Shown here one piece after another: positions 171 through 44,457 of a stretch of 64,000 nt of DNA (positions are counted from its first letter, which is position 1; every line of letters begins with the position of its first letter). The stretch lies in the NCBI RefSeq assembly GCF_049977125.1, contig NZ_JBMFGY010000005.1, positions 5,965-69,964 of the forward strand. Direction: 5' to 3'. The DNA comes from Acidiphilium sp. GTDB lineage: Bacteria; Pseudomonadota; Alphaproteobacteria; Acetobacterales; Acetobacteraceae. The translations under genes and the position numbers were made by a program. The notes under the pieces were generated by a model that saw only the letters and a program-made list of their open reading frames with translations, did not search any database and was not told where the DNA came from.

Positions 171-1832
171 TCAACCGATCTGGATGACGTGGACATCAAC
201 CATGGGACGCTTGCCGAATCGGCGGCCGAGGACGCGGCGGAGGGCGGATTGCGCGGCTTCCTTCACGGCGCCGCGATCGGTGCGCAGGCTGGCGGGAAGT
301 TCCTCGAAACTCGTGACGAAATCGGCTTCGAGGGCGGCGAGGGCGGAATCCTCGGTGTCGAACAGACCCGGCGCGGTGATCTGCGCGCCGCCCTTGACCC
401 GGCCGGATTGGTCGATCGCGATGCTGCCGATCACGACGCCGTTGAACATCATGCGCCGGCGCGCGGCCATGACGCCGCCCTGCATCGGGACGAGGCGATC
501 GCCATCGACCGCGAGGCGTCCGACCGGGACAGAATCGATCACCTCGGGTTCGCCGGGGCCGAGGCGGGCGACGTCGCCATCTTCGAGCAGGAGGGTGCTG
601 ATGCCCTCGGCTTCGGCGAGATCGGCCTGGGCGGCCATGTGACGCCATTCGCCATGGGTCGGGATGATGTATTTCGGGCGGACCAGGCGGTAGAGATGGC
701 GCAGCTCGTCACGCGCGGGGTGGCCGGAGACGTGAACCATGTGGTCATCCGCGGTCATGACGTTGACGCCGGCGCGGACCAGATCGTCCTGGACGTTGCC
801 GATCGCGCGCTCGTTGCCGGGGATCATGCGCGAGGAGAAGATGACGGTGTCGCCTTCGCCGAGGGCGATATTGCGGTGGGTGTCGGCGGCGATGCGGGCG
901 AGGGCGGAGCGTTTTTCGCCCTGGCTGCCGGTGGCGAGGATCAGGAGATTGTCGTCGGGGATGCGGCCGGCTTCGTCCTCGGGGACGAAATCGGGCAGGT
1001 CCTGGAGGTAGCCGGTCTCCTGCGCGGCTTCGACATATTTGGCGAGGCTGCGGCCGACCAAAGCGACGTGGCGATCCGCGGCGAGGGCGGCTTTTACCAC
1101 CGTGTCGATCCTTGCGATGTTGCTCGAGAAACAGGTGACGACCACCCTGCCCTTCAGCCCGGCGATCAGCGCGGTCATGCTTTTGCGCACCGTGGCCTCC
1201 GAGCCGGAATGGCCTTCGACCTGGGCGTTGGTGGAATCGGAGACCATCGCGAGCACGCCCCGATCGCCCAGCGCCTTGAGGGCGGCTTCGTCGGTCGGCG
1301 GGCCGACCAGGGGTTCGGGGTCGAGTTTCCAGTCGCCGGTGTGCAGGATGGTGCCGACCCTGGTGGTGATGGCGAGCGCCTGCGCTTCCGGGGTGGAGTG
1401 GGCCATGCGGATGTATTGCAGGTCGAACCCGCCGATTTTGAACGCGGAACCGGGGGCGGTTTCGTGGATTTTCACGCTGCGCAGCAGGCCGGCTTCGCTG
1501 AGACGGTAGCGGATGAGGGCGGCGGTGAAGGGGGTGGCGTAGATCGGGCAGCGCAGCGCATCCCAGATGCGGGCGATGCCGCCGATGTGGTCTTCATGGG
1601 CGTGGGTGATCACGAGGCCGGTGATGCGGTCGCGGTTGGCCCTGAGATAGGCGGGGTCGGGGACCAGCAATTCGGCTTCGGGGGCTTCCGGCCCGGCGAA
1701 GCCCATGCCGCAATCGACCACCAGCAGCTCGTCATCGATGCCGTAGACATTGAGGTTCATGCCGATTTCGCCGGTGCCGCCGAGCGGGGTGAAGGTGAAG
1801 CCGGCGTTGGATTTTGTGGGTTTTTTGGTCAT
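171..1832 (-). CDS. rnj: Ribonuclease J (metallo-beta-lactamase/beta-CASP family)
   Basis: The 585-aa ORF was trimmed to the ATG at 1832 (MTKKPTKSNAGFTFTPLGG...). It has the HxHxDH motif (THAHEDHIGG) and an RNase J-like length of about 553 aa. It starts 22 nt after the coaX stop. Confidence 0.85.
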   Translation of the reverse strand: MTKKPTKSNAGFTFTPLGGTGEIGMNLNVYGIDDELLVVDCGMGFAGPEAPEAELLVPDPAYLRANRDRITGLVITHAHEDHIGGIARIWDALRCPIYATPFTAALIRYRLSEAGLLRSVKIHETAPGSAFKIGGFDLQYIRMAHSTPEAQALAITTRVGTILHTGDWKLDPEPLVGPPTDEAALKALGDRGVLAMVSDSTNAQVEGHSGSEATVRKSMTALIAGLKGRVVVTCFSSNIARIDTVVKAALAADRHVALVGRSLAKYVEAAQETGYLQDLPDFVPEDEAGRIPDDNLLILATGSQGEKRSALARIAADTHRNIALGEGDTVIFSSRMIPGNERAIGNVQDDLVRAGVNVMTADDHMVHVSGHPARDELRHLYRLVRPKYIIPTHGEWRHMAAQADLAEAEGISTLLLEDGDVARLGPGEPEVIDSVPVGRLAVDGDRLVPMQGGVMAARRRMMFNGVVIGSIAIDQSGRVKGGAQITAPGLFDTEDSALAALEADFVTSFEELPASLRTDRGAVKEAAQSALRRVLGRRFGKRPMVDVHVIQIG

Positions 1833-1854
1833 TCGTGATGGTCTTTCATGATCG

Positions 1855-2655
1855 TCAGTCGTTTTCCGGCTCGCGGTTGCGCAATGGCGGGGATGGGTTG
1901 CGCAGCGCCAGCAGGCGCAACCCTTCAAGGGTGAGATCGGGGTCGGTGCGCTCGATCCGGGGGCTGCCCTCGGCGATCAGGGGGGCGAGGCCGCCGGTGG
2001 CGATGGTTTTCATCGGCGCGCCGAATTCGGCTTCGATCCGGGTGATCAGGCCTTCGACCAGGCCGACATAGCCCCAGTAGATGCCTGAGCGCATGGCGGG
2101 AATGGTGGAGGTGCCGATCACCCGCTGCGGGCGGCCGATGCCGATGCGCGGCAGGCGGGCGGCGGCCTGGTGCAGCGCCTCGACCGAGAGGTTGATGCCG
2201 GGTGCGATCGCGCCGCCGATATAGGCGCCGGTTTGATCGACGACGTCGAAGGTGGTGGCGGTGCCGAAATCGACCACGATCAAGGGGCCGCCATAGGTCT
2301 GATGGGCGGCGAGCGCGTTGAGCAGACGGTCGGCGCCAACCTCGGCGGGATTGTCGACCGCGATGGCGAAGCCCCAGTCGAGCGTGGCGCTGGCGATCAG
2401 GGGTTCGATGCCGAACCAGTCACGGCAGAGGCGGCGGAGGTGGTAGAGGGCGGCGGGAACCACGGTGCCGATGACGGCGCGGGTGATCGCCGCGACCGCG
2501 ATGCCGTTGCGTTCGAGCAGAAAGCCGAGCCAGACGCCGTATTCATCGGACGTGCGCTGCGCATCGGTCGCGATGCGCCAGGTGCCGCGCCAGGCGATGC
2601 CGTCATGCACCGCGAAGACGATGTTGGTGTTACCGGCATCGATGACCAGTCTCAT
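1855..2655 (-). CDS. coaX: Type III pantothenate kinase
   Basis: The ORF was trimmed to the ATG at 2655. The N-terminus [16 protein letters not shown] carries the CoaX DxGNT signature. Length is 266 aa. The upstream in-frame extension is Pro/Ser/Ala-rich junk that overlaps birA. Confidence 0.85.
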
Positions 2656-2677
2656 GTGGTTCGGTCCCTGGCGCTGC

Positions 2678-3406
2678 TCATAGCAGGGCGACGTCGCCGC
2701 TGCGGATGGTGGTGATGGTGTCGCCCTGTCGGAGCAATAAACTGCCCGCGGCGTCAATCCCGGCGAAGGTTCCGGTACGGCGTCCGCCGTCGATGGTGAG
2801 GGCGGCACCTTGGGGGTGGGCGCGCGATTGCCACGCCGCGCGGAGGGTGGCGCCGTGATCGGCGGCGAGGCTGGCTTGCCAGTGGTCGAGCCGGGCGCAG
2901 AGTGTCGGGAGGAGGTCGGCCGGGGTGGCGCGGCCACCGAGCGCGGCGAGGCTGGTGGTGGCGCGGCCCTCGATTTCGGGGGCATGGGCGAGGTTGACGC
3001 CGAAGCCGATGATCAGCGTGGCGATCATGCCCTGCTCGACCGTGGCATCGAGCAGGATGCCGGCGAGTTTGGCGCCGTTGGCCATGAGGTCGTTCGGCCA
3101 TTTGAGGCTGAGCGGCGACGGGTGGGGCAGCATGGGATCGAGCGACTCGAGCAGCGACAATCCGGCGATCAGGGCGAACATTCCTCCCTCGGCGGCCGGG
3201 ATGGCGGGGCGCAGCAGGGCGGAGGCGTAGAAATTACCCGACGGCGAGGACCAGACCCGACCGGCGCGGCCGCGCCCGGCGGTCTGGCGTGTCGCGGTGA
3301 CGAACAGGCGGTCGGGCTCACCGTTGCGGGCGCGCTCGGCGCAAAGATCGGAGGTGGAGGCGAGGGTCTCATGACAGGCGAACCGCCACCCCGGCTCGGC
3401 CGTCAA
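2678..3406 (-). CDS. birA: Biotin--[acetyl-CoA-carboxylase] ligase (group I, no HTH domain)
   Basis: Carries the [19 protein letters not shown] biotin-binding motif and KWPNDL. No ATG lies between the homologous region and nuoN. I propose the TTG at 3406-3404, which overlaps the nuoN TGA (TTGA junction). The stop is firm; the start is inferred. Confidence 0.7.
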
Positions 3407-4851
3407 AAGCCCTGGCTCGGAAACAGCGCGTGGGCCGCGAGCGAGGAGACGGTGGACAACGGCGCGGGGTAGAAGACGAACAAGGCGATCGCGATCGCGC
3501 TCACACCGATCACGAGGTTGATGCCGGCGCTGCGCCGGTCGAAACCGGGGGAGCCCGTGTCGAAATACATCACTTTGATCACGCGGAGATAATAAAACGC
3601 GGCGATCGTGCTGGTGATGATGCCGATGACCGCCAGAATGTCGAGACGCGCGTCGATCGCGGCGGCGAAGACGTAGAATTTGCCGAAGAAGCCCGCCAGC
3701 GGCGGGATGCCCGCCATCGACCACATCATGATCGCGAGCACCAGAGCGTAGCGCCCGTCCTCGCTCGCCATGCCGGCGAGATCGGCGATGCGTTCGACCG
3801 GGCGGCCCTTGCGCGACATCGCGATGATGCAGCCGAAGGTGCCGAGCGACATCACGAGGTAGATCGCGAGGTAGATCAGGGTCGCGCGGATGCCCATGAG
3901 CGTGCCGGCGGCGAGACCCATCAGGGCGTAGCCCATGTGCCCGATCGAGGAATACCCCATCAGGCGCTTGATGTTGGTCTGCCCGATCGCGCCGAGCGCG
4001 CCGACGATCATCGAGGTGGCGGCGAGGATTTCGACCAGATCCTGCCATTGCATGAACAATGGCCCGAACGGGCCGAGCATCACGCGCAACAGCAGCGCGA
4101 ACACCGCGAGTTTCGGCGCGGTGGCGAAAAAGACGGTGACCGAACTGGGCGCGCCTTCATAGACATCCGGCGTCCACATATGGAACGGGGCGGCGGAGAT
4201 TTTGAAGGCGAGGCCGACCAGGACGAAGACGATGCCGACGGTCGACCCCAGCGACGCGGCGGCGCTGCCGGTGAGGGCGCGGGCGATGCCCTCGAAATTG
4301 GTGGTGCCGGAAAAGCCATAGACCAGCGAAATTCCGTAGAGAAGGATGCCGGAGGACAGCGCGCCGAGGACGAAGTATTTCAGCCCGGCTTCGGAGGAGC
4401 GCAGATTGTTGCGCGCGAAGGCGGCGAGCACGTAGAGGGCGAGCGACATGATCTCGAAGCCGAGATACAGCGTCAGCAGGTCGCCGGCCGAGATCAGCAC
4501 GATCATGCCGACCACGGCGAAGATGATCAGCACCGGATATTCGAAACGGGTGATGCCGGTGCGCTCGTTGAACGCGACCGAGAGCGACAGCGCGCCGGCG
4601 GCGCCGAGCAGCACCAGCATGTCGGCGAAGCGGGTGAAATCGCTGGTGAGGTAGAGGCCGTGGAAGACCTCGCCATCGGGTGCGGCGAAGATCAGGCGGG
4701 CGGTGATCGCCAGGATCACGATGGCGCTGCCGGTGATCGCGAAACTATGATCGCGCGCGGTGAACACGCCGGACATCAACATGATCATGCCGGCGATGGC
4801 GAGGAACAGGAGGGGGAGCATGGTGTTGAACATGATCATCGCGGCACTCAT
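3403..4851 (-). CDS. nuoN: NADH-quinone oxidoreductase subunit N
   Basis: The 914-aa ORF was trimmed to the ATG at 4851 (MSAAMIMFNTMLPLLFLAIAG...), which forms an ATGA overlap with the nuoM stop. It is a polytopic antiporter-like protein of 482 aa in the last position of the nuo operon. Confidence 0.85.
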   Translation of the reverse strand: MSAAMIMFNTMLPLLFLAIAGMIMLMSGVFTARDHSFAITGSAIVILAITARLIFAAPDGEVFHGLYLTSDFTRFADMLVLLGAAGALSLSVAFNERTGITRFEYPVLIIFAVVGMIVLISAGDLLTLYLGFEIMSLALYVLAAFARNNLRSSEAGLKYFVLGALSSGILLYGISLVYGFSGTTNFEGIARALTGSAAASLGSTVGIVFVLVGLAFKISAAPFHMWTPDVYEGAPSSVTVFFATAPKLAVFALLLRVMLGPFGPLFMQWQDLVEILAATSMIVGALGAIGQTNIKRLMGYSSIGHMGYALMGLAAGTLMGIRATLIYLAIYLVMSLGTFGCIIAMSRKGRPVERIADLAGMASEDGRYALVLAIMMWSMAGIPPLAGFFGKFYVFAAAIDARLDILAVIGIITSTIAAFYYLRVIKVMYFDTGSPGFDRRSAGINLVIGVSAIAIALFVFYPAPLSTVSSLAAHALFPSQGF

Positions 4852-6365
4852 GGTTTGGCCATCGCAAGCGTTGCCGGCAGCTGAAGGGCGGCGACATGGG
4901 CGCGCACCAGATCGGTCACCGCGGTGTGGAACGCCTCGGTCAGACCGCCGGGCACGAAGCCAAGCCCGAGGACAAGGACGGCGAGCGGGGCGAGCATGAG
5001 CCATTCCTTGCCGGTGAGGTCGCTGATGACGGCGTTCGCGATGCTGCGCGCATGGTCGAACAGGACGCGGCGGACCATGACCAGCATGTAGATCACGCTC
5101 AGGATCATGCCGGTGCTGACCAGGAGGGCGACCCAGAAATTGACCTGGATGGCGCCGATCATGACCAGGATTTCGCCGACGAAGCCGGAGGTGCCGGGCA
5201 GGCCGATATTGGCGAGGACGAAAAACATCAGGAAGGCCGCATAAATCGGCATGCGGGTGGCAAGCCCGCCCAGCTGGTCGAGCCGGAGCGAATGGCCGCG
5301 CGCGAGCAGGATGCCGACGCAGAGGAACAGGCCGGCGATGACCAGGCCGTGCGAGACCATCTGGAACAACGCACCTTCGATGCCGATGACCGTGAAGGTG
5401 AAGATGCCGACGATGATGAGCCCCATGTGGGCGACCGAGGAATAGGCGATCATGCGCTTCATGTCGGTTTGCGCGAGGGCGGCGAAGGAGATGTAGATGA
5501 CGCCCATGATGCCGAGGGCGAACATCAGCGGTGCGAAATACTGCGAGGCTTGCGGCAGCATCGGCAGGGAGAAGCGCAGGAAGCCGAAGGCGCCCATTTT
5601 CGAGAGCACGGCGGCGAGCATGATGGTGCCGGGCAGCGGCGCTTCGCCATAAGCATCGGGCAGCCAGGTGTGCAGCGGCCAGACCGCGGCCTTGACGCCG
5701 AACGAGGCGAGGAAGGCGAGGAACAGCCAATCCTGAATATGCGGCGGGATCGGCGTGTGCATCAGGGTGATCATGTCGGTGGTGCCGGCGTTGTGCCACA
5801 TCCACACCAGGGCGAGCAGCATCGGCAACGAGCCGGCCAGAGTGAACAGGAAGAATTTGAGCGCGGCGTGGATGCGCCGCTCGCCGCCCCAGATTCCGAT
5901 GATCAGATACATCGGGATCAGCACGCCCTCGAAGAAGATGTAAAACATCAGGAAATCGAGCGAGCAGAACATGCCGATCGTCATGGTTTCCAGCAGCAGG
6001 AAGGCGGCCATGTACTCGCGCACGCGGCGGCTCTCGCGCCAGCTCGCGAGGATGGCGATCGGGGTCAGCAGCGCGCTGAGGGCGACGAAGAACAGGCTGA
6101 TGCCGTCGATGCCGAGACGGTAGGCGATATGGAATTGCGGAATCCACGGGGCGGTTTCGGTGAATTGGAAACCATGGGCCTGCGGGTTGAAATCGGACAG
6201 CATGATCGCGGCGAGCACCAGGACGAGCAGGCTGGTCCAGAGCGCGATCCAGCGGGCGTTGCGCGCGCTGGCAGCGAGGCTGCCCTGCGGGACGAAGATA
6301 AGCGCGGCACCGATCAGCGGCAACCAGATCATCAGCGAGAGGAGGGGAAACATCATGGTGCTCAC
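4848..6365 (-). CDS. nuoM: NADH-quinone oxidoreductase subunit M
   Basis: 505-aa polytopic ORF (MSTMMFPLLSLMIWLPLIGA...). The first codon is GTG at 6365 and overlaps the nuoL TGA. ATG codons at 6356 and 6353 are alternative starts. Confidence 0.85.
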   Translation of the reverse strand: MSTMMFPLLSLMIWLPLIGAALIFVPQGSLAASARNARWIALWTSLLVLVLAAIMLSDFNPQAHGFQFTETAPWIPQFHIAYRLGIDGISLFFVALSALLTPIAILASWRESRRVREYMAAFLLLETMTIGMFCSLDFLMFYIFFEGVLIPMYLIIGIWGGERRIHAALKFFLFTLAGSLPMLLALVWMWHNAGTTDMITLMHTPIPPHIQDWLFLAFLASFGVKAAVWPLHTWLPDAYGEAPLPGTIMLAAVLSKMGAFGFLRFSLPMLPQASQYFAPLMFALGIMGVIYISFAALAQTDMKRMIAYSSVAHMGLIIVGIFTFTVIGIEGALFQMVSHGLVIAGLFLCVGILLARGHSLRLDQLGGLATRMPIYAAFLMFFVLANIGLPGTSGFVGEILVMIGAIQVNFWVALLVSTGMILSVIYMLVMVRRVLFDHARSIANAVISDLTGKEWLMLAPLAVLVLGLGFVPGGLTEAFHTAVTDLVRAHVAALQLPATLAMAKP

Positions 6366-33066: not shown

Positions 33067-35832
33067 ATGTTAAGCGGGCGTTGCATGACATTGCCGCCGC
33101 GCGCCGTCACGAACCGGCATTTGATCCCGATCCTGGCGTTGATCGTCCTGCCCATCGCGGCGAACGGGCTGATGCTTGCCGGTATCACGCATGGCAACCC
33201 TGCGATTTTCGTGATGTTTCTGACCCGAGGATTGGTTGGCGGGTGGCTGCCGGGCGCGCCGGGTTGGCGCGATCCGACGATCGGGTTGATCACCCAGCCC
33301 CTTGGGATGTTGAGTGCGCGCGATTGGTTGCACGGCATTGTTCCCTGGTGGAACCCGTATTCCGGCGTCGGCATGCCGCTGGCGGCGGAAATGCAGACGA
33401 TGTCATTTTTTTTGCCGTTCGTGCTGCTGCTGAAATTCTGGGGCGGCTGGCTGGCGTTGAAACTCATCATCCAGATCCTGTGTGGATTGTTCACCTATGC
33501 GCTGCTGATCGAGTTACGCCTGACCCGGCTGGCCGCTGGGCTGGGAGCGCTGTTCTTTGCGCTTTCACCGACGATTTATCTGGTGCCGCATGTAATGGGG
33601 CCGCTGCCGTTCGCACCGCTGCTACTACTCGGCATCGAACGCGCCGATCGGGCCGCGCGCGACAGCAGGGGGCTGGGCTTCGGTTTGATTCCGGTGGCGC
33701 TGGCGTATTCGATTTATGGCGGCTACCCCGAAGTTGCTTATGCCGACGCAACGCTGGCGGCGGTATGGACGATCTGGCGCTTCGCCGGCGCGGGCGCCGC
33801 ACGGTGGCGATTCGCCCGCAAGATTGTTCTGGGCTGCGGCATCGGGCTGGTGATGAGCCTGCCGCTGGTGGTGCCGTTTTTCCAGTATGTCCGTCTGTCC
33901 TACCTTGGGCAGCACGCTGATTTATATAGCTGGATCTGGTTGTTGCCGCCCGGCGCACCGTTGCAATTGTTTCCGTTCATTTACGGGCCGATCGGCGCGC
34001 TGACGCCTCCGGGCGTGTCACCGGTATTGTCCAATCTGATCACGGCGAGTTGGAACCAGCTCGGTGGCTGGTTCGGGCCGCTGGCGGCGCTGCTGGGTCT
34101 GGCCGCGATTATCCGGCCGGGGCGGCTGCGTGGACTGGGCTTCGTGCTGACCGGATTTATTCTGGTCTGGCAGTTGCGCATCTGGGGATTTCCTCCGGCG
34201 GTCTGGCTGATCGACCGGATTCCGTTGATGGCGCGCACCAATGCGATCAGGTTCAGCGGTCCGGCAATGGAACTCGCCTGTTTCATCCTGCTCGCGATCA
34301 CCGTCGATCGCTGGCAGACCGGTGGAGCGTTCGATCGCCGCGCCGTTTGGTGCCTGAGTACGCTCGGTGCCGCGATCGGTCTGTTCGCGGTGCTGCCAGC
34401 GCTGCGCAGTCTGATTGACTGGTTCGCGCCCGGTACCGCGATGCTGGGATTTGCGCTGGGGGCCACGGGTATCGAACTCGCTCTTGCGGTTGCGGCGGTG
34501 ACGCTGTTGACCCGTCCACCGGGTCGAGCGACGACGCTCGCGCTTACGCTCGTCGTCGGGACGGAGTGTTTCGCGACCGCAGCACTCAGCCAGTTCGCGG
34601 CGCCTCGTCATGGCACGATCGACCTTAGCGGTGTTGCGTATTTGCAACGTCATCTGAGGCTGGCGCGGCTTTATTCATTGCAGCCGTTCGGGCCGAATTA
34701 TCCGGCGGCGTTCGGGCTGGCGGCGATCGATGAAAATGAATTACCGGTGCCCGCAGCATGGAACGACTACATCCATCGCCATCTCGACCCCTATGCCGAT
34801 GTGGTGATGTTCACCGGCTCTCAGGCACGCAGCATAGGTTGCACCCTGCTGCCGCGCGCGGCGGCGGCGTTGCGCGATGGCGTGTTCATCCGTCCACAAC
34901 GCTCGGTGACGCCGCCCGATCAGAGTGCCGAATTGCGGCGCCATCTCGCGGCATACGGCGCGATTGGGGTGAAATACGTGCTGACGCCACCGGATCAGAA
35001 TCCGTTCGTCACCCACGCGGATCTGCCGGTGACCTCGGCCGGGCAGGTGCCATTTGCCCTGCCTGCGGGCGGTGTGCTGAGCGGCGACATTCCGGCCGGC
35101 ACGATCTCCTTGCGCCATGTCGATCGGGTGGATGTGTTGATCGGCACCTATGACGGCGCGGCCCGCGGCGCACTGAGTGTGCAACTGTGTACTCGCAAAA
35201 TATGCGCCACGGGCCATGCCGAACTTGCAACAGCACAGGATGATCATTTTCTGGCAATCAAGCTCGATCACCGCCTGGATGTGCCGGTCGATGCCGGATT
35301 GCGCTACCGGTTCACCCATCGGCACGGGGCGGCGGTGGCGATCTGGCTGGGCAGCTTTCGGATCGATGCGCCGCCGGCGCTGGCGGTGGGCGGCATCGCG
35401 CCGCCGCACGCACCGCTGCTCCGGCTGATCGACACACCGCGCGATGCACCACCGCTGGTGTTTGCCAACCAGGTCATGCGGATCTACCGGCTGGATCGGC
35501 CGCGCGAATTTTTTACCACCGTTCCGGCTTGCCACCTGACCCGCCTCGCGATCGATGCGGTGGATGCCGACTGCCCGGCACCGGCGCGGCTGCTGCGGCT
35601 TGAAGCCTATTATCCGGGATGGCACGCGCGCATCGCTGGGCGAGCCGTGCCGATCGAGCGGACAGAATCGATCTTTCAGTCCGTGGCATTGCCCGCGGGG
35701 CGCAGCAAGGTGCGGTTTTTCTATCGCCCACCGTTCATTCGGATAAGTTGCGCTATGGCTCTGGCAGGACTCGCAATGTGGCTCGGCCTGATGCTCGCAT
35801 CGGTTCTGCGGGCGCGCCGCGCCCGACGGTGA
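33067..35832 (+). CDS. Large polytopic membrane protein, YfhO-like / GT-C-fold putative glycosyltransferase
   Basis: 921 aa. The N-terminal ~480 aa has many TM helices, followed by a ~400-aa soluble region and one terminal TM helix (AMALAGLAMWLGLMLASVL). This architecture resembles the YfhO family. Family assignment is by architecture only. The ATG at 33085 is an alternative start. Confidence 0.55.
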   Translation: MLSGRCMTLPPRAVTNRHLIPILALIVLPIAANGLMLAGITHGNPAIFVMFLTRGLVGGWLPGAPGWRDPTIGLITQPLGMLSARDWLHGIVPWWNPYSGVGMPLAAEMQTMSFFLPFVLLLKFWGGWLALKLIIQILCGLFTYALLIELRLTRLAAGLGALFFALSPTIYLVPHVMGPLPFAPLLLLGIERADRAARDSRGLGFGLIPVALAYSIYGGYPEVAYADATLAAVWTIWRFAGAGAARWRFARKIVLGCGIGLVMSLPLVVPFFQYVRLSYLGQHADLYSWIWLLPPGAPLQLFPFIYGPIGALTPPGVSPVLSNLITASWNQLGGWFGPLAALLGLAAIIRPGRLRGLGFVLTGFILVWQLRIWGFPPAVWLIDRIPLMARTNAIRFSGPAMELACFILLAITVDRWQTGGAFDRRAVWCLSTLGAAIGLFAVLPALRSLIDWFAPGTAMLGFALGATGIELALAVAAVTLLTRPPGRATTLALTLVVGTECFATAALSQFAAPRHGTIDLSGVAYLQRHLRLARLYSLQPFGPNYPAAFGLAAIDENELPVPAAWNDYIHRHLDPYADVVMFTGSQARSIGCTLLPRAAAALRDGVFIRPQRSVTPPDQSAELRRHLAAYGAIGVKYVLTPPDQNPFVTHADLPVTSAGQVPFALPAGGVLSGDIPAGTISLRHVDRVDVLIGTYDGAARGALSVQLCTRKICATGHAELATAQDDHFLAIKLDHRLDVPVDAGLRYRFTHRHGAAVAIWLGSFRIDAPPALAVGGIAPPHAPLLRLIDTPRDAPPLVFANQVMRIYRLDRPREFFTTVPACHLTRLAIDAVDADCPAPARLLRLEAYYPGWHARIAGRAVPIERTESIFQSVALPAGRSKVRFFYRPPFIRISCAMALAGLAMWLGLMLASVLRARRARR

Positions 35833-38209
35833 AGCTGGTGACGGTTCGACCCGTTTCGAACAAATCGAGGATTTTGTCCGCGCGCACCGGCGGCGAAAAC
35901 AGATAACCCTGCCCGTCGTTGCAGCCATAGCTTTTCAGCACCGCGGCGTGACGTTCGGTTTCGATGCCCTCGGCCGTTACGCGCAGACCCAGCGTATGGC
36001 TGAGTTCGATGATCGCCTTGACGATCGGCGCATCGTTTTCGTTGCATGCGAGATCGTTGATGAAACTGCGGTCGATTTTCAGACGGTCGAACGGAAAGCG
36101 GCGCAACGTCGCGAGGGAGGAATAGCCAGTGCCAAAATCGTCGATTGCGATGCGGCACCCAAGGGCGCGCAGCCCGTGCAGATGTTCGATTGTGCGCCCT
36201 TCGGTTTCGAGCACGGCGGATTCGGTGACTTCGAATTCGATCCGAGCGGGGGTGACGCCGGCCGCCTCGATGATTGCGTGGAGTTGGTCGACCAGCCAGG
36301 CCTCGCGCAGGTGCAGCGGCGAGAGATTGACCGCGACAGTGATGGCCGGAGGCAGCTTGGCCGCGAGCGCGGTGGCCTCGGCCAGCACGAAGGCCGTGAC
36401 GGTGCTGATCAGCCCGCTGCGTTCAGCGATTTCGATGAAATCACCGGGTGGGATAATGCCGCGTTCCGGATGGCGCCAGCGCACCAGGGCTTCAAGACCG
36501 ACAATGCTGCTCGAGGCAAGGGCGATAACCGGTTGGAATTCGACGAACAACTGATCGTCACGCAAGGCGCGTTTCATGTCGCGCTGGAGGCCGCGCCGAT
36601 CCTGTAAATGGCGGTCCATCGTGCGATCGAACAGCCGCCAGGTGCCGCGACCGGAATCTTTCGCACGATACAGGGCGAGATCGGCGTTTTTATACAGATC
36701 CTCGGCTGTGGTACCGTCCCGTGGGGCGAGTGCGATGCCGATGCTGACACCGATTTCGACGGTAACCCCATCGAATTTATAAGGGCGGGCCACACGGTCG
36801 ATGACCCGTTCGGCCACAGATGTCGCTTCGAACTCATCATCCGACGGCAGGACAATGGAAAATTCATCCCCTCCGAGACGAGCGGCGACGTCGCGATCGC
36901 GGATCGCGCCGCGAATCCGGTGCGCCACCGCGCGCAGGACCGAATCACCCATCCCATGGCCATAGGAATCATTGACCGCCTTGAACTGATCAAGATCAAG
37001 ACAGAGCAGCGCCGCCCCCGGCTGACGATCATCGCTGAGCCACTGGCTCAGGGTATTGTTGAATTCGGTACGATTGGCGAGGTCGGTCAAGGAATCGTGG
37101 CGGGCCAGATGGGCGATGCGCTCGCGCGAGCGGTGCATGGCGGTGACATCGGACCCGACGCCACGATACCCGATGAAATTGCCGCGGCGATCCTCGATCG
37201 GTTTGCCGGTCATCGACCACCAGCGTCGTTCACTGCCCATGCTGACCGGGACCACCAGATCGCGGAATGGCTTGCGTGCAGCCATCTGCCGACGCATCGC
37301 CTCGAAGGCGTCTCCCGCTGCCACCGAGGGTCGGCGCAGGGTCTCGTCGGCGCCGGCCATGAAGGTGAACAGATCACCGCCGATCGCCTCCACGGGCCGT
37401 CGTGCCACTTCGGCGAAACGGGCCGATACCTGTTTGATCTGACCCGAAGCATCGGTTTCCCACAACCAGTCGCTGGCATTTTCCTCGAAATCGCGCAGCA
37501 GGATGCGGATGGTTTCAGTGGTTTGAGCGAGGCGAATGGAGCCGATGTTGCGTTCAAACAATCGTCGATTGACATAGAATATCGATGAAATCGCCAAAAA
37601 ACTGTAGCCTAGAAAGCAGACAACAATGGGCCAGACTTCGAACTTGTAGTTCAAAACGATAATCACGACGGTACCCGTGATGATCGGCATAACGAATAAC
37701 AGTGATGACAGGATTGGTCCTGCCGTTGTCGCCGTTGAAATGAGGCCGATCACAACACCGAACAATAATCCGCTTTGGAGTTTATCCGCAAACGACATCA
37801 ATCTGTCGATATAGATAATCCAGTCACTACCAATCAAAAATATCAATATGTTATATATATTTTTAAAGCGACCTGATTCAATCGAAAAGAATTTCATATA
37901 TTGATATGTTCGACAGAACGTTGATAGTAACGTGTATAATAATATTAGTGAAATAAAAAGCGCATTTGCAAAAGCGTTATATCGGTTATTTTGAAATTCA
38001 AAATAAATTGCAACCGTGATTATGATTCCGATTAGCGCGGAAGTCGCGCTGAGTTTCGCCCGAACGATAAACTGATCGTTTTCAACTTGCCGAACAAGAT
38101 CCTCCGACTCCCGGGCGTTGGCGTTCCCGGTCTCCAACAGCATTCTCAGTCGCTGAGCAAACGGCATCGTCATCGCACGAGCGTGATAGCGAGGGCGACA
38201 ATTTGACAC
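35753..38209 (-). CDS. Membrane-bound PAS-GGDEF-EAL protein (c-di-GMP synthase/phosphodiesterase)
   Basis: 818 aa. About 6 TM helices at the N-terminus are encoded by AT-rich DNA. A PAS-like segment follows (DWLWETDASGQIKQV). It has an intact GGDEF (RLGGDEFSIV) and an intact EAL (VGLEALVRW ... GYLFSPP). The start is uncertain: GTG 38209, ATG 38173 or ATG 38167. Confidence 0.85.
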   Translation of the reverse strand: MSNCRPRYHARAMTMPFAQRLRMLLETGNANARESEDLVRQVENDQFIVRAKLSATSALIGIIITVAIYFEFQNNRYNAFANALFISLILLYTLLSTFCRTYQYMKFFSIESGRFKNIYNILIFLIGSDWIIYIDRLMSFADKLQSGLLFGVVIGLISTATTAGPILSSLLFVMPIITGTVVIIVLNYKFEVWPIVVCFLGYSFLAISSIFYVNRRLFERNIGSIRLAQTTETIRILLRDFEENASDWLWETDASGQIKQVSARFAEVARRPVEAIGGDLFTFMAGADETLRRPSVAAGDAFEAMRRQMAARKPFRDLVVPVSMGSERRWWSMTGKPIEDRRGNFIGYRGVGSDVTAMHRSRERIAHLARHDSLTDLANRTEFNNTLSQWLSDDRQPGAALLCLDLDQFKAVNDSYGHGMGDSVLRAVAHRIRGAIRDRDVAARLGGDEFSIVLPSDDEFEATSVAERVIDRVARPYKFDGVTVEIGVSIGIALAPRDGTTAEDLYKNADLALYRAKDSGRGTWRLFDRTMDRHLQDRRGLQRDMKRALRDDQLFVEFQPVIALASSSIVGLEALVRWRHPERGIIPPGDFIEIAERSGLISTVTAFVLAEATALAAKLPPAITVAVNLSPLHLREAWLVDQLHAIIEAAGVTPARIEFEVTESAVLETEGRTIEHLHGLRALGCRIAIDDFGTGYSSLATLRRFPFDRLKIDRSFINDLACNENDAPIVKAIIELSHTLGLRVTAEGIETERHAAVLKSYGCNDGQGYLFSPPVRADKILDLFETGRTVTSFTVGRGAPAEPMRASGRATLRVLPEP

Positions 38210-38318
38210 TCCTCAAAGTTGTGATTCGGCAACGTTAAATTTATTGAAAACGTCGTGGCCTTTACATCTTCTGTTAAGTATTTTGTCATGAGGTACAACC
38301 GAAGATAAAGGAGTTACC

Positions 38319-39137
38319 GTGGTGAATGATCCTGGAGTGGCAACGACTCATATAAATCGCCTTAGCAATGAGTCCCTCGAAGGCAGCATCGCCGAACAGT
38401 TGTTCGCAAAAATTGTAACAGATGCGCAGGATTTCGAAGTAGCCTTCGCACTGCGATACCGGGCGTATTTCAATGCGGGTTATCTCAAAAACATCGACCA
38501 TCATAGTTTTTCTGACATATACGATGATCGTCCATCAAGCAAAACAATCCTGATCTATCGCGGCGAACAAGCGGTGGGGTCGATCCGGGTCTGCGTGTTG
38601 GATCGCGCCAAGCCGGACGCGATCGATCTGCCCGCATCCAGGATGTTTCACGAAGAAATTGACAATCTCTTAACCGTGCCACCGCATTCTACGGCGCCTC
38701 GCAGGGCTGTCGAGATCACCCGCTTGGCGCGCGACCCGGAACGCCTGGATGATCGGCGCGTGCTATGGGCGATGTTTCGAATGGTTGGGTATCTGATCAT
38801 CGCCAACAATGCGGACATCGTGTTCGTGGCTGTCACAAAAAATCACATGCCGCTCTACCGCCGAATGGGATATCAGATCGTCGCGGCGCCTAAAGCCTAT
38901 CCTGGTTTGGATGTCGAAACCGGTCTGATGGCTTGTTTTCGCGATGATTTCACAAGCGTACAGCGGCAGGTTGCCATATTGGGCAGTGTGTCCCGATCGA
39001 GTTTGATCTATGCGGATTTCATTGGCGGCAACAAAGTACCCGTGTTTGAGGACGCCGTAACCGACGTCTCCAGCCGATTGATCAGCAACCGTACCGACGC
39101 GCGGGGCACTGAAACCGGTGTTCGAAAAATCGCCTGA
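38319..39137 (+). CDS. GNAT-fold N-acyltransferase, N-acyl amino acid synthase (FeeM)/LuxI-like
   Basis: 272 aa. The GTG start has an AAGGAG SD 8 nt upstream. It has an N-terminal FALRYRAYF..GY motif, then D.YD and G..VGS.RV, then an EITRLA core. This pattern is shared by LuxI, FeeM and OlsB-type acyl-ACP/CoA-dependent N-acyltransferases. The family call is by motif only. Confidence 0.5.
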   Translation: MVNDPGVATTHINRLSNESLEGSIAEQLFAKIVTDAQDFEVAFALRYRAYFNAGYLKNIDHHSFSDIYDDRPSSKTILIYRGEQAVGSIRVCVLDRAKPDAIDLPASRMFHEEIDNLLTVPPHSTAPRRAVEITRLARDPERLDDRRVLWAMFRMVGYLIIANNADIVFVAVTKNHMPLYRRMGYQIVAAPKAYPGLDVETGLMACFRDDFTSVQRQVAILGSVSRSSLIYADFIGGNKVPVFEDAVTDVSSRLISNRTDARGTETGVRKIA

Positions 39138-39255: not shown

Positions 39256-40482
39256 CTAGAAGGCAGAGAGACCGGTCTGCGCCCGCCCCAGAATAAGGGC
39301 ATGCACATCGTGCGCGCCTTCATACGTATTCACGGTTTCAAGGTTCAACAGATGACGGATGACATGGTATTCATCGACGATCCCGTTGCCGCCGTGCATG
39401 TCGCGCGACAGGCGGGCGATGTCGAGTGCCTTGCCGCAATTGTTGCGCTTCAACAGCGAAATCATTTCTGGCGCCGCTTCGCCGGCATCAAGCAGGCGAC
39501 CGAGGCGGAGTACGGCTTGCAGCCCGAGGGTGATTTCAGTCTGCATATCGGCCAGTTTTTTCTGAACCAATTGTGTGCCGGCGAGCGGACGGCCGAACAT
39601 CTGACGATCCAGCGTGTACTGCCGGGCGGCATGCCAGCAAAACTCGGCGGCACCGAGCGCACCCCAGGCGATGCCATAGCGCGCGTTGTTGAGGCAGGAA
39701 AATGGTCCCCGCAGTCCCTTCACGCCGGGCAGCATATGATCGTCCGGCACGAACACGTCGGACAGCATGATCATGCCGGTAATCGAGGCACGGAGCGAAA
39801 ACTTGCCCTCGATTTTCGGGGTCTCAAAGCCTTTGCTCGCACGATCAACCAGAAAGCCGCGGATAACGTCGGCATCGTCCTTGGCCCAGATCAGCGCCAT
39901 GTCCGCGATCGGCGCGTTGCTGATCCAGGTTTTGGAGCCGTTCAGCAGATAGCCGCCGTCAACCTTCCGTGCGCGCGTCCGCATTGATCCGGGGTCCGAC
40001 CCGGCGTCCGGCTCGGTCAGGCCGAAGCAGCCGACCCAGTCACCGCTACGCAGTTTGGGCAGGTATTTATCCTGCTGCGCCGGCGATCCGAAGGCGGCGA
40101 TCGGGTACATCACCAATGAGGATTGCACGGAGAACACCGAGCGATAGCCGCTATCAACCCGTTCCAGTTCGCGCGCGATCAAACCGTAGGCGACGTAGGA
40201 GACATCGGCGCAACCGTGGCTGGCGAGCGTCGCGCCCAGAAACCCCATCGCGCCCATTTCGGAAACGATGGCACGATCGAAGGTTTCGGTGCGAAAGGCG
40301 TGCAGCACGCGGGGGAGCAGCTTCTCCTGGGCGTAATCATGGGCGGCGTCGCGGATGGCGCGCTCGTCCTCGCTCAATTGTGGTTCAAGGTGCAGCGGAT
40401 CGGCCCAGTCGAAGGGGATGAATCCCCCTTTCTTCGGAGCGGTTGCGGGTCCGGGAGCGATCACCTTGAGCATTTCATTCAC
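39256..40482 (-). CDS. gcdH: Glutaryl-CoA dehydrogenase
   Basis: 408-aa acyl-CoA dehydrogenase fold ([12 protein letters not shown]) with a C-terminal ...[23 protein letters not shown] typical of GCDH. Confidence 0.82.
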
Positions 40483-42017
40483 GCCGCAATCTCCGTGTCG
40501 TCGTTATGAGTGTCCTCCCCATCATGGAAGGCCGGTTCCGGCTCCGTTGTACGGCGGCGCCGAGTTATGTGCATGAAGGCGGGAACATCCTCGCCGAATC
40601 CGACCACGATGCTCCGATCCTCGACGATATCGCTGTCGCGGCGGGCAGGTCGCGGCGCGTCGCGCCGGGGTGCGGCACGAGGCGGGAGGCGGGATGATTT
40701 TCGATCGTCTCCTCGAGCGGCCTCGACCGGGGTTTCGCGGCGTGGCGGCGTGGTGATTTCGACCGCGGGCGCATCGGCGCGGGCCATTGATTTTGACCGC
40801 GCTGCGGGAGCGGATGTGCGGCCGCGGCTCCGACCCCGTTTTTCACTTACCGCCCATTCGACCGGATCAAGCCCCTCGACCGCGAGGGGTGGAATGGCAT
40901 GGCCGGTCAATTTCTCGATCGCCTCAACCGCTAGACGGTCATCCGGCGTTGCGAGGGTGAGCGCACGGCCTTCAAGCCCGGCGCGGCCGGTGCGACCGAT
41001 CCGATGGACGTAATCTTCCGCGTGATGCGGCACGTCGAAATTGAAGACATGCGATAGCCCACCGATGTCGATGCCGCGCGCCGCGACATCCGAACAGACG
41101 AGCAAACGGATCGTGCCGGCCTTGAACGCCTCCAGGGTTGCAAAGCGCGCCGATTGCGGCATGTCGCCATGTAGCATTCCGGTCGAAAAACCGTGCCTGG
41201 ACAGGGATTTATAGAGGATATCGACGTCTCGCTTGCGGTTGCAGAACACTAGGGCATTCTGCACGTCCTCTGTGCGCACCAGGCGGCGCAGCGCCTCGCG
41301 CTTATCATGGGTGGCGACCAGAAACAGTCCTTCGGTAATGGTGGTTGCGACCGAGGCTGGTTTGGAGACGCTGATTTCCTTGGGATTCCAGAGAAACGCA
41401 TCGGCGAGGCGCTTGATCTCCGGCGCCATGGTCGCTGAGAAAAACAGGGTTTGCCGCGGCTTCGGCAACATGGCGACGATCCGCTCGACATCTGGAATGA
41501 AGCCCATGTCCAACATGCGGTCGGCCTCGTCGATCACCAGCACCCGCACATCCGAGAGCAGCAGACCGCCACGCTCGAAAATATCGATCAGCCTTCCCGG
41601 CGTCGCGATCAGGACATCGACGCCGCGGGTCAGCACATCGCGCTGCTCGCCCATGCTCTCGCCGCCGATCAGCAGCGCGTGGGTGAGTTTGAGATGCTTG
41701 CCATACTGCACGAAATTTTCCGCGACCTGCAGGGCGAGTTCACGAGTCGGCTCCAGGATCAGCGAGCGGGGCATCCTGGCGCGGGCGCGTGAACCGGACA
41801 GAATATCGAGCATCGGCAGTGTGAAGCTGGCGGTCTTGCCGGTGCCGGTCTGCGCGCAGCCAAGTACATCACGCCCCATCAGTACCATCGGGATGGCCTG
41901 CTCCTGGATCGGTGTCGGCGTGGTGTAGCCTTTTTCGAGCAATGCCCGCAGCACTGGTTCGGACAGACCAAGAGCGGCGAAACCGGTCGCCTCGTTCAGC
42001 GCGTCCGGATCAGTCAT
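40479..42017 (-). CDS. DEAD-box ATP-dependent RNA helicase (RhlE-like) with a basic C-terminal tail
   Basis: Has the Q-motif (GYTTPTPIQ), [16 protein letters not shown] and [11 protein letters not shown] chose the ATG at 42017 ([13 protein letters not shown]...). The ORF-track start at 42110 is a TTG. The stop overlaps the gcdH ATG by 4 nt. Confidence 0.85.
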
Positions 42018-42232
42018 GAACGCGGCGCCGATCGGCGCATCCGGCGTTGGGTTTTTCGAAGCGTCAGATGCTTCTGAAGCAGAGGCATCGAAATCCTGAG
42101 TTTCGGGCAAATTGTCGACCAGTTCGGAAAAGAGGGCGTTGACCGGGCTTAATGATACCGGATCAGACGTGAAAATTTTGGCGCGATTTCACGCACCTCA
42201 CCGCGCCTGTATCCTTGGACTCGGCAAAAAAG

Positions 42233-43276
42233 TCAAGAGATCAGTGATGCCAGCGCCGTCTCGGCGCGCAGCACACCGCGCGCAAGGGCGGCGATGTCCA
42301 CCTCGGTTTGCAACATGTGACGCTCGCCCAACGGCAGAGCGGTTCTGACCGGATAGCGGGGTGCCGGTGACAGGATCAATCGCCATTCCAGACCGAACAT
42401 CCGCGCGCAGGCGGCAATCGTGGTGTCGCGCCAGCCATCGATGCCGAGCTCGAGCACCATCGTGCCGGGATCGCAGAACCCAAGCAGCGGCGCCTGAGCC
42501 GGATCATCGATGACGATGACGCGTGATGCCGCCAATGACGCCACGAGGTCGGTCAGGCCAAGTTGGTTCACGCCGAGGCGCATGGCGGCGACGTCGAGGA
42601 CCGCGAAGCCACGGGCGCGCAGCCAGGCCAGCACACTGGCCTGATTGGCACGGGTGAACCGGGCTTCATCGGCCGGCGCCAGAATCGCGATGCGCGCGCT
42701 GACTTCGTAGGGTTCGACCATGAAGCGCAACGACTCGATCGCGGGACGGATCATGCGCGAGACGCCGCTGCCAACCGGCCGGGTCAGACAGAGCCGGGCA
42801 ATCCGGGTCGGGGTGGCGATCGGGGTATAACGATCGAGCAGGTTCATCGCTGCCAGCGCATCGATCTGCGCCAGCGTGAGCGGGGCGCCGATCAGGCCGG
42901 GGACGCCGCCCGCGCGACATTGCAGTGAGGCGATCGATAGAGTCTCGCCAAGAAACCGGCCCAACGGTTCGTCGGCGCCCGCCGCCAGCGGTGCCAGTAC
43001 GCCGGTGCCCGGATGAACGGCGATCGGTTCGGCGATATGCGATGGCATCACACCGTGGCGGAGCGCGCCCGCCGCATCGAGAATTGCAAAGGGGGTCGGA
43101 ATTACCAGCGCGTCATCAAGCATGACGGTTTCCCACCCCGGCATCGGTACTGCCGGATTGGCCAGTGTGCGATCGGGACGATCGACCCCGAACCAGGTAA
43201 CGTCATGGACCATGCCGCGCGGCACCATATCGGCGGCACCGGGCATCAGGTGGCAAAATACCTCGTGGTCGCTCAT
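42233..43276 (-). CDS. DUF563/GT61-like protein, degenerate paralog
   Basis: 347 aa. The C-terminal half aligns by eye to the upstream gene (LGFCDPGTMVLEL vs LGFCDPGTRVLEI; LLDRYTPIATPTRIARL vs LLDGYIALEAPTRFRKL). It lacks the NYGHF motif. It has an ATGA overlap with the upstream gene. Confidence 0.6.
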   Translation of the reverse strand: MSDHEVFCHLMPGAADMVPRGMVHDVTWFGVDRPDRTLANPAVPMPGWETVMLDDALVIPTPFAILDAAGALRHGVMPSHIAEPIAVHPGTGVLAPLAAGADEPLGRFLGETLSIASLQCRAGGVPGLIGAPLTLAQIDALAAMNLLDRYTPIATPTRIARLCLTRPVGSGVSRMIRPAIESLRFMVEPYEVSARIAILAPADEARFTRANQASVLAWLRARGFAVLDVAAMRLGVNQLGLTDLVASLAASRVIVIDDPAQAPLLGFCDPGTMVLELGIDGWRDTTIAACARMFGLEWRLILSPAPRYPVRTALPLGERHMLQTEVDIAALARGVLRAETALASLIS

Positions 43277-44457
43277 CGCGGCCCGAACACGGTGGCGAGG
43301 GCAGCGCGAAATGCGCCGGGATCGACGGTGAACTGGAATTCACGGGCAGTACCGATCTCCGCGGGCGCACCGGTCGCGAAAAAGACCTGCCACCTCAATC
43401 CAAACAAGTGGCATGACGCGCGGGTCCAACCATCGGAAAACCGATCCGGCTGAATTTCCAACACCCGCGTGCCCGGATCGCAGAAGCCCAGATTGGCGAG
43501 GCCCGCACCGGATTCGCCGATCACGCCAACAGCGGAGGCAAAAAGCCGCGCCTGCTCGGCCACGCTCATGGTGGCGGGGCGGACCAATTCAAATCCGAAA
43601 TCAGCAGCGATTGCTTCGATTTCGCTGCGATTGTCCATGATCCGGCGATTGTCCGGCGTATCACGCGAGATCATCAGACGGCGTCCGCTGGTGCGCTCCG
43701 TGCCAAAGCGAAACCGAAGACGGTCGAACACGGTACGGATGAAACGGTTGGGATAGGAAACGGTGAACGAAACCATCGTGCTGGTGAGCAGCTTGCGAAA
43801 CCGCGTCGGTGCTTCGAGCGCAATGTAGCCATCGAGCAGATCGAGAGCTTCGAGTATTTCCGCCTGCCAGGGCAGCAGCGTCCGCCCGGCAAGCACCGCG
43901 CCGGGGCCGAGGAGCAGCCGGTGATGCAGCGCCGCCGGCAGACCATCATAGAGGAAATGGCCATAATTATTGCCGCCAACACCACCGACCGGCAGGGCGA
44001 TCATCGGCGAATAGTCAATGTTGCGGTTGGAATCGGCAAAGCGCCAGCCATCCTTGGCGGTGGTGAAATTTCCGTCGATCAGTGATAACTCGCCGTTCCA
44101 CATGGCAAGATTGGCGATGGATGGCTCGAAAAATGCCTGTCGCGCGTTCAGCACGGCCATCGAATCCGGGGCAAGGATCGCCTCGTTGAGCAGAACGCTG
44201 GCGACATGCTGTAGCCGGTGGACCGGATCATCGCGCAAGGCGGCAATCGTGGGCTGGCCAGCGCCGAACACGGTGCGCCCAGCGACCAAACCGTGAGGTA
44301 CGACATCGAGAAACCGATCCGGGGTGTGACGAAGCTGGCAATCGACCGCCTCGGGGTCGCGCACCGCCCGCCTGAGCGCGGCAAACCCAGACACGGCCGG
44401 AAGATCATCGCTGGAGAAGCGGCGAATCGGCGCGGAGGAGATCGGTGGTCCATCCAT
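43273..44457 (-). CDS. DUF563 / glycosyltransferase family 61-like protein
   Basis: 394 aa with the GGNNYGHFLYDGLPAAL motif (the N-x-GHF..D/E.LP hallmark of DUF563 capsule-type glycosyltransferases). Confidence 0.65.
   Translation of the reverse strand: MDGPPISSAPIRRFSSDDLPAVSGFAALRRAVRDPEAVDCQLRHTPDRFLDVVPHGLVAGRTVFGAGQPTIAALRDDPVHRLQHVASVLLNEAILAPDSMAVLNARQAFFEPSIANLAMWNGELSLIDGNFTTAKDGWRFADSNRNIDYSPMIALPVGGVGGNNYGHFLYDGLPAALHHRLLLGPGAVLAGRTLLPWQAEILEALDLLDGYIALEAPTRFRKLLTSTMVSFTVSYPNRFIRTVFDRLRFRFGTERTSGRRLMISRDTPDNRRIMDNRSEIEAIAADFGFELVRPATMSVAEQARLFASAVGVIGESGAGLANLGFCDPGTRVLEIQPDRFSDGWTRASCHLFGLRWQVFFATGAPAEIGTAREFQFTVDPGAFRAALATVFGPR

Follow-up and report, generated by a model that had tools for sequence, protein, structure and literature searches.

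Two genes lie back to back in a 64,000-nucleotide stretch of DNA from an Acidiphilium sp. (the window, by which we mean the whole of this stretch), one encoding a putative N-acyltransferase of 272 aa and the other an 818-aa membrane protein with the domains of a cyclic di-GMP (c-di-GMP) enzyme, and the question raised by this arrangement is whether the two proteins work together and, if so, in which direction. A preliminary description of the locus, made from the sequence alone, had proposed that the acyltransferase makes a lipidic signal and that the membrane part of its neighbour senses this signal and converts it into a change in c-di-GMP. We followed up this proposal by profile searches, structure prediction and comparison of related loci, and found that the pairing is conserved beyond chance and that the enzyme and the transmembrane module of its neighbour vary together. 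To a circuit in which an N-acyl amide signal is read by a cognate membrane sensor with c-di-GMP output we give, on these comparisons, an even chance of being correct.

The preliminary description had classed the 272-aa protein as LuxI- or FeeM-like by its motifs, which are indeed present (ALRYRAYFNAGY, SDIYDD, VGSIRV and VEITRLA), had named profile searches and a Foldseek comparison as the check, and had considered a housekeeping enzyme of the OlsB type as the alternative identity. The Pfam profile FeeM (PF21926) matched the protein over profile positions 2-156 of 158 (E 2.4e-31, 109.1 bits, cut-off 27), and it matched 47/47 members of the subfamily to which the protein belongs. The profile Autoind_synth (PF00765) matched neither the window protein (E<=0.1) nor the 47 members (E<=0.01), and Acetyltransf_5 (PF13444) matched none of them either, the sole sub-threshold match to it coming from P0097, a distant relative outside the subfamily. 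A scan of the protein against NCBIfam gave a weak match to PRK14852 alone (17.8 bits, cut-off 1337), so that TIGR03694 was not matched, and no exosortase genes were seen at any locus inspected.

When the single acyltransferase sequence was compared with PDB sequences by phmmer there was no match, and a profile of the 47 subfamily sequences reached FeeM weakly (E 0.005). The relationship was clearer at the level of the predicted fold. An AlphaFold2 (AF2) model built from 19 homologs had a mean predicted local distance difference test score (pLDDT) of 82, with most 10-residue blocks between aa 31 and 240 averaging >90, and a Foldseek search of the PDB with this model placed chains of FeeM (2G0B) at ranks 1-6 (E 7.7e-13, target TM-score 0.80-0.84). 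The acyl-homoserine lactone (AHL) synthases LasI, BjaI, TofI, RpaI, EsaI and MesI followed at ranks 7-39, interleaved with other acetyltransferases (E 2e-8 to 3e-6), and most of the remaining matches were generic GNATs. By profile and by modelled fold the protein is thus a FeeM-family enzyme and not one of the LuxI, OlsB or exosortase type, and the OlsB alternative found no support in either comparison.

Relatives of the enzyme are rare: a word-indexed search with the single sequence gave 2 proteins, and an exhaustive search of representatives gave 305 (E<=1e-3) among 1.84 billion clusters, of which ~60 were full-length proteins of 240-290 aa with a common C-terminal extension beyond the FeeM core. 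In the alignment of the 47 subfamily members R46, D66, D69, E132, H176 and Y180 are fully conserved and R90 and R182 almost fully. The resulting spacing, R-20-D-2-D-20-R...E-2-R, matches what we take to be the conserved set of the LuxI synthases (LasI, EsaI, TofI and BjaI among them), which are related to the window enzyme in fold and differ from it in their Autoind_synth profile and LuxR partner; as the preliminary description had stated, no LuxR-type gene is found among the annotated neighbours within ~8 kb. E132, which lies in VEITRLA on the central strand (aa 129-138), may, by its expected position, correspond to the catalytic Glu of NAS (N-acyl amino acid synthase) enzymes; this residue is Glu95 in FeeM and Glu103 in Nas354 (PMC4897644). 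FeeM shares its Pfam family and its fold with the window enzyme at ~16% identity, the subfamily adding the C-terminal extension of ~40 aa and an invariant set of its own, and, in contrast to FeeM and other NAS enzymes, the window enzyme is partnered by a GGDEF-EAL sensor and not by a fee-type biosynthetic cluster or a PEP-CTERM/exosortase system.

Among distant relatives the FeeM domain is fused to domains of acyl activation and transfer: P0093 (901 aa) combines a fatty-acyl-AMP ligase (AMP-binding) and a carrier protein with FeeM, P0097 (309 aa) combines a carrier protein with FeeM, and an AMP-binding enzyme gene lies directly downstream of the FeeM homolog of locus L009. These associations support acyl-carrier-dependent N-acylation, and we would predict the product class to be an amino acid carrying a long N-acyl chain, made from acyl carrier protein-bound acyl chains (acyl-ACP). 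P0065 (438 aa) is listed with P0093 and P0097 among the distant FeeM-domain fusion proteins.

The divergent partner had been described as a PAS-GGDEF-EAL protein with six transmembrane (TM) segments and intact signatures, and both the Pfam domains and a motif check agree with this. The RDRD I-site, five residues ahead of GGDEF, is complete, as are GGDEF, EALVR, VNLS, DDFGTGYSSL, KIDR, EGIE and QGY. The N-terminal part is loop-poor, as had been claimed: hydropathy gives ~6 TM segments between aa 50 and 215, joined by loops of 7-19 residues, without a periplasmic domain, and K/R-rich segments on alternating sides fit an N-in/C-in topology. Residues Y92, G127, W130, S158, G164, P175, G179 and Y202 are conserved within the membrane part, and a Pfam scan of this module returned no family even at E<=10. 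The protein is predicted to be a standard bifunctional-type GGDEF-EAL enzyme with an undescribed N-terminal TM module. It is also the product of the sole GGDEF/EAL gene in the window.

Co-occurrence of the enzyme with GGDEF/EAL genes had been named beforehand as a test of the proposal. Loci that encode members of the subfamily were gathered from genomes and metagenomes by scanning, from look-ups of exact proteins and from plasmids, and in these loci we looked for the sensor, first with its modules and then with a hidden Markov model (HMM) of the TM module. The genome-collection scan with a 3-sequence alignment gave one locus, L002, from an Acidocella sp. metagenome-assembled genome (MAG), and a single-sequence tblastn search with the window TM module missed L016 and L023, both of which were recovered by an HMM of ten modules (L023 with E 5e-68). 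Six further loci, in which the contig ends too near the gene, were uninformative and stand outside the 17 loci counted here.

At 14 of these 17 a gene for a multi-TM PAS-GGDEF-EAL protein lies immediately upstream of the FeeM-subfamily gene. Eleven are divergent pairs (the window, L002, L004, L005, L010, L016, L017, L019, L020, L022 and L023; L011-L014 carry the same protein as L010 and are counted with it), and their TM modules are homologous to that of the window (HMM E 5e-68 to 1e-101). In the other three (L006, L008 and L027) the genes are co-directional, the FeeM gene lying directly downstream of a gene for a multi-TM PAS_7-GGDEF-EAL protein; the FeeM proteins of this clade are more distant, have 230-254 aa and carry Asp in place of the invariant Glu. 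In L006 the pair (433-5976) is inserted between tolB and pal/ompA of the Tol-Pal cluster, and in L027 an OmpA gene lies downstream. All complete partners retain intact GGDEF and EAL motifs. The binomial tail for 14/17 is 4e-16 even at p=0.05 per neighbour, the lineages not being fully independent, and on this comparison of loci the pairing is not chance. Moreover, the genes around the pair vary from locus to locus (sigma-70 and PAAR genes, integrase and WGR genes, an acyl-CoA dehydrogenase gene, tol-pal), so that the pair itself is the conserved unit.

A comparison of individual modules revealed a mosaic, seen in four related loci rather than in a population sample. Between the window and the Acidocella MAG the FeeM proteins are 35-39% identical and the TM modules 31%, as against 71% for PAS, 83% for GGDEF and 84% for EAL (62% for the whole sensor); the MAG contig ends before the acyl-CoA dehydrogenase gene. 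For L001 and L015, whose contigs end before the TM module, the other flank could be compared, and here FeeM identities to the window of 51% and 40-42%, respectively, are set against acyl-CoA dehydrogenase identities of 88% and 85%; L001 and L015 themselves share 38% in FeeM and 87.5% in the dehydrogenase. The synthase and the sensor domain are thus far more divergent in these loci than the output domain and the flanking gene, a pattern like that of pherotype loci. Control pairs lack this pattern: L016 and L022 share 72% in FeeM, 72% in TM, 71% in PAS, 72% in GGDEF and 83% in EAL, and L017 and L020 share 72%, 71%, 71%, 85% and 88% in the same order. Given that these pairs diverge roughly evenly over the modules, the TM module and the enzyme are not intrinsically fast-evolving.

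At 37525, the TM/PAS junction, the blastn similarity of the window to L002 breaks off; on the other flank, that to L001 and L015 picks up again where the dehydrogenase gene has its 3' end. The GC content at third codon positions (GC3) is lowered across the block in the window, L002 and L010; in the window it is 0.49 in the TM module and 0.59 in the acyltransferase gene, as against 0.71 over the remainder of the GGDEF-EAL gene. The best account of the mosaic is that a ~1.7-kb cassette, comprising the TM module, the intergenic region and the acyltransferase gene, was exchanged between conserved flanks, with episodic diversification of the cassette as the alternative origin. When ten of the divergent pairs (L023 excluded) are compared with one another, FeeM identity tracks TM-module identity with a Spearman coefficient of 0.86, for which a p-value is not meaningful since the pairs are non-independent. 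That the cassette co-varies while PAS-GGDEF-EAL stays conserved argues that the functional partner of the enzyme is the TM module, and a link through diffusible c-di-GMP alone is harder to reconcile with variation that ties FeeM to this module.

These data also bear on the possibility that there is no direct coupling, the two genes being a mobile pair held together by co-transfer or shared regulation, or the enzyme making a structural aminolipid that the TM protein needs or reports. The pair does sit in a low-GC islet, integrase, PAAR and toxin-antitoxin genes flank homologs, and the enzyme occurs alone on Acidiphilium plasmids. However, adjacency persists over FeeM identities of 25-77%, in two gene orders and with differing flanks, and selfish co-transfer alone leaves a breakpoint exactly at the TM/PAS junction unexplained, and we give this explanation a slim chance.

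In the two-gene signalling cassette that we propose, consisting of a synthase and a divergently transcribed sensor, a cytosolic FeeM-family enzyme would move a fatty acyl group from acyl-ACP or acyl-coenzyme A (acyl-CoA) to an amine, for which an amino acid is the likeliest candidate. The resulting N-acyl amide would partition into the membrane, where the inner-membrane partner would detect it through the 6-TM, loop-poor module, perhaps aided by the PAS domain next to it, and detection would shift the balance between synthesis by GGDEF and hydrolysis by EAL, the level of the signal being read as c-di-GMP. The enzyme gene and the TM module would form a co-adapted specificity unit that is inherited, exchanged and diversified jointly, as pherotype loci are. 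We infer the chemistry of the product, its identity with the ligand, the domain that binds it, the sign of the c-di-GMP change and whether the action is intercellular or confined to the producer. The coupling of the TM module to the enzyme, which the preliminary description had supposed, gains indirect support from their joint exchange or divergence next to a conserved PAS-GGDEF-EAL portion; the part of the claim that assigns sensing to this module stands less firmly, as the product may be sensed by the PAS domain instead.

It is also conceivable that the direction is reversed, with the sensor reading some other membrane or environmental cue and c-di-GMP acting on the FeeM-type enzyme, be it on its activity, its stability or its expression. 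The output of c-di-GMP signalling would then be the N-acyl lipid, whether a surfactant, an antibiotic or a membrane aminolipid. There is a precedent in the functional metagenomic NAS enzymes Nas343 and Nas354, which are fused to a PilZ-like domain and so also link FeeM-type NAS to c-di-GMP (Thies et al. [quoted passage not shown] The conserved, confidently modelled C-terminal extension of the window enzyme (aa 208-245) would be in keeping with such control, and many subfamily members end in -AA, which is proteolysis-tag-like and suggests post-translational control. On the other hand, the link in the window is a neighbouring sensor that metabolises c-di-GMP, Pfam detects in the enzyme neither PilZ nor another domain known to bind c-di-GMP, and the tie of FeeM to the TM module by recombination and divergence would not be expected if a diffusible nucleotide were the sole link. 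We therefore regard reversed control as unlikely, both for the regulation of the enzyme and for the lipid as an output.

The co-divergence of FeeM and the TM module, together with the cassette mosaic, also fits a physical complex with two-way control, in which the enzyme would dock on the leader or loops of the TM module, the receptor would restrain the synthase and the product would release it. In that case the high variability would stem from co-evolution of a protein-protein interface no less than of a ligand pocket. Such a complex would have its analogue in RpfR, which binds and inhibits its synthase RpfF (PMC6361424), and variability or disorder is seen in the sensor's N-terminal leader and in the two tails of the enzyme. 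A complex of this kind overlaps with the signalling cassette rather than opposing it, and taken by itself it seems to us quite unlikely, for the docking and for the interface alike. Alternatively, the enzyme might acylate a protein, for example the N-terminal leader of its partner, instead of a free amino acid. The GNAT fold would allow this and the enzyme co-varies with the N-terminal part of the partner, yet its closest profile and structural relatives (FeeM and the AHL synthases) acylate small amines, and the leader shows no obvious Lys or N-terminal Gly that is conserved; protein acylation is accordingly most improbable.

Several points weigh against the signalling cassette itself. The first is the precedent of the PilZ fusions discussed above, and the second is that the PAS domain could be the ligand site instead, by analogy with RpfR, because the PAS domain of RpfR binds its signal (PMC6361424). 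The TM module has no characterised relatives, an alignment search giving 0 matches among 8000 low-complexity candidates, and an AF2 prediction of the TM and PAS region without an alignment had a pLDDT of 40 and was unusable. The TM module of the co-directional pairs has no detectable homology to that of the window (hhalign probability 0.2%); given that the two kinds of module are non-homologous, the element common to all pairs is multi-TM, PAS, GGDEF and EAL. In three lineages (L003, L009 and the Acidiphilium plasmids) no GGDEF-EAL gene lies beside that of the enzyme, and the enzyme thus has no strict need for the partner. Finally, co-occurrence was counted from the enzyme side, the loci having been picked by their FeeM-subfamily members, and most loci are short metagenome contigs that may not be phylogenetically independent, the organism being known just for the Acidocella MAG and the Acidiphilium plasmids among the related loci.

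At the unpaired loci the FeeM homolog of L003 adjoins a BamB/PQQ-like protein gene; L009 (3-2530) has a sigma-54 enhancer-binding protein gene upstream and the AMP-binding enzyme gene downstream; and on plasmids of Acidiphilium cryptum and A. multivorum the homolog lies near genes for a winged helix-turn-helix (winged-HTH) protein and an integrase. On these plasmids (pACRY02 of A. cryptum JF-5 among them; L025, 6698-8726) the winged-HTH protein has 383 aa and its gene, which is divergent, lies next to the integrase gene and a RES-Xre toxin-antitoxin pair. In L009 and on the Acidiphilium plasmids, which lack the partner, a regulator-like gene nonetheless adjoins that of the enzyme.

Among known systems, the functionally most similar would be RpfF/RpfR, the quorum-sensing system of Burkholderia and Cronobacter, which responds to the Burkholderia diffusible signal factor (BDSF) and in which the genes for the signal synthase and for a PAS-GGDEF-EAL receptor form a conserved pair (PMC6361424, PMC4698668). 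As in the pairs described here, the gene of a lipid-signal synthase adjoins that of a PAS-GGDEF-EAL protein and the arrangement is conserved across species, and in RpfR the signal is turned directly into c-di-GMP turnover with no DNA-binding receptor (PMC6361424, PMC4698668), which is what we propose by analogy for the window pair. The resemblance appears to be functional alone. RpfF belongs to the crotonase family and produces a cis-2 fatty acid, whereas the window synthase is of the GNAT/FeeM type, and RpfR is soluble with its signal bound by PAS, whereas the window receptor has a 6-TM module whose variation goes with that of the synthase. The pair does not belong to the RpfF/RpfR type, given a synthase outside the crotonase family and a receptor whose N-terminus has six TM segments where RpfR has the FI domain. 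The preliminary description had proposed that the usual LuxR-type readout is replaced and knew this pairing from no described system; of this the particular pairing stands, as it was not found described in the literature searched; the concept itself is less new, RpfF/RpfR being a described pair of a synthase and a PAS-GGDEF-EAL protein.

A different likeness is to agrBDC of staphylococci and comQXP of Bacillus, in which the signal genes and the membrane sensor domain of the receptor vary jointly while the output domain is conserved. The window shares with these loci a hypervariable block of synthase and sensor between a conserved output domain and conserved flanking genes, and it differs from them in that their signals are modified peptides and their receptors histidine kinases, where the window has a FeeM enzyme and a GGDEF-EAL sensor. 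The concept of hypervariable, pherotype-type quorum-sensing loci has been set out previously (PMC4408185).

Full-text literature searches linking FeeM or NAS enzymes to GGDEF proteins, diguanylate or c-di-GMP returned the NAS-PilZ paper alone, in which this pairing is not described, and a genomic survey that noted NasY homologs in Acidiphilium does not describe it either (PMC8776678). Whether the pair represents a new class of signalling between cells or to the producer itself, with a FeeM-made N-acyl amino acid as autoinducer, a 6-TM intramembrane sensor, c-di-GMP as output and a cassette that diversifies into mutually specific 'lipotypes' among related Acetobacteraceae, is a more far-reaching proposal that we put forward as tentative and rather doubtful. 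If it is true, it would provide a lipid counterpart of the agr and comQXP pherotypes and a physiological role for bacterial N-acyl amino acids, a role that is still called unclear (PMC4897644). It would add a third lipid-type autoinducer chemistry beside the AHLs and the fatty acids of the diffusible signal factor (DSF) family, a new intramembrane sensor domain for the c-di-GMP field, and a specificity-cassette polymorphism of a signalling locus outside the Firmicutes; the product of the enzyme would be the signal, and the output would be the nucleotide that sets the balance of biofilm and motility. If the direction is reversed, the pair would still mark a new c-di-GMP-controlled lipid output, and the finding offers an orphan enzyme class a testable physiological role.

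The features of the locus are collected in Table 1; both ORFs (open reading frames) were confirmed at the coordinates given there.

Table 1. Features of the divergent gene pair in the window (positions are those of the window; aa, residues of the respective protein)
Feature	Position	Strand	Details and basis
Gene of the multi-TM PAS-GGDEF-EAL protein	35753..38209	-	818 aa
EAL phosphodiesterase domain (aa 531-790) and C-terminal tail	35753..36619	-	Pfam, aa 543-774, 244 bits
GGDEF diguanylate-cyclase domain (aa 361-530)	36620..37129	-	Pfam, aa 369-522, 153 bits; RxxD I-site RDRD
PAS domain (aa 226-360)	37130..37534	-	Pfam PAS_4, E 2.5e-07, aa 243-359
N-terminal module (aa 1-225): cytoplasmic leader, ~6 TM helices, very short loops	37535..38209	-	Hydropathy
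Shared divergent control region, AT-rich	38210..38318	.	109 nt; sequence reading
FeeM-family N-acyltransferase	38319..39137	+	272 aa; alternative start 38322; Pfam PF21926, AF2 and Foldseek
GNAT/LuxI-like core (aa 28-207), subfamily-specific C-terminal extension (aa 208-245), disordered tails (aa 1-23 and 246-272)

Both the shared control region and the shared compositional islet of the preliminary description were recovered. The spacer measures 109 nt and up to ~150 nt, because the sensor may start at the GTG at 38209 or at an ATG corresponding to M13 or M15. On the other side AAAGGAG at 38307-38313 is a candidate ribosome-binding site, and the second GTG, 8 nt past GGAG, would be an equally good start of the acyltransferase, the database copy of which (P0001) has 271 aa. 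The motif TTAAGTATTT at 38273-38282 is present also in the otherwise dissimilar spacers of L002 and L004; TAAGTATT is common to the intergenic regions of the window, L002 and L004, and CATGAGGT to those of the window and L004. In the window TTAAGTATTT falls inside an inverted repeat, ATCTTCTGTT / AACCGAAGAT, at 38266-38275 / 38297-38306, and this element could be a candidate -10 element or operator for the acyltransferase gene. A promoter and terminator scan gave nothing above shuffle expectation, an Rfam scan of the window returned three tRNAs alone, with no c-di-GMP or other riboswitch near the pair, and PADLOC gave no defence-system match. The GC content is 0.39 at 37500-37999 and 0.48-0.56 from there to 39500, compared with a window mean of 0.63.

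The neighbouring genes are of housekeeping type and encode GlnD, MutS, a YfhO-like membrane protein, a glutaryl-CoA-dehydrogenase-like acyl-CoA dehydrogenase, a DEAD-box helicase and a glycosyltransferase 61 (GT61) protein. The acyl-CoA dehydrogenase was considered as a part of the module and rejected; it is syntenic in the closest relatives alone (the window, L001 and L015) and behaves as a conserved flank. The YfhO-like ORF (33067-35832, +, 921 aa) converges with the GGDEF-EAL ORF and overlaps it by 80 nt (35753-35832), and the last ~30 residues of the sensor, past aa 790, form an unconserved tail. Two adjoining minus-strand genes at 42233-44457, of 347 and 394 aa, look paralogous, the second matching Glycosyltransferase 61 and the first having no Pfam match; these two genes and the YfhO-like protein hint at a surface-glycan theme around the pair.

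The C-termini of the FeeM subfamily are enriched in Ala: 13/47 end in -AA (five of them in -LAA) and 20/47 in A, at an overall Ala frequency of 0.11. Such ends resemble an ssrA-type degron, which suggests that the synthase may be subject to regulated proteolysis. The C-terminus of the window enzyme (39126-39137) reads KIA, and at the other end of the protein 15/47 members start with MDG. Lastly, the C-terminal tail of the DEAD-box helicase (40479-42110) is rich in Arg, Pro and Ala and much more variable than the core: aa 345-543, which span the tail, are 49% identical to L001, and near full length the helicase is 77% identical to that of L015.

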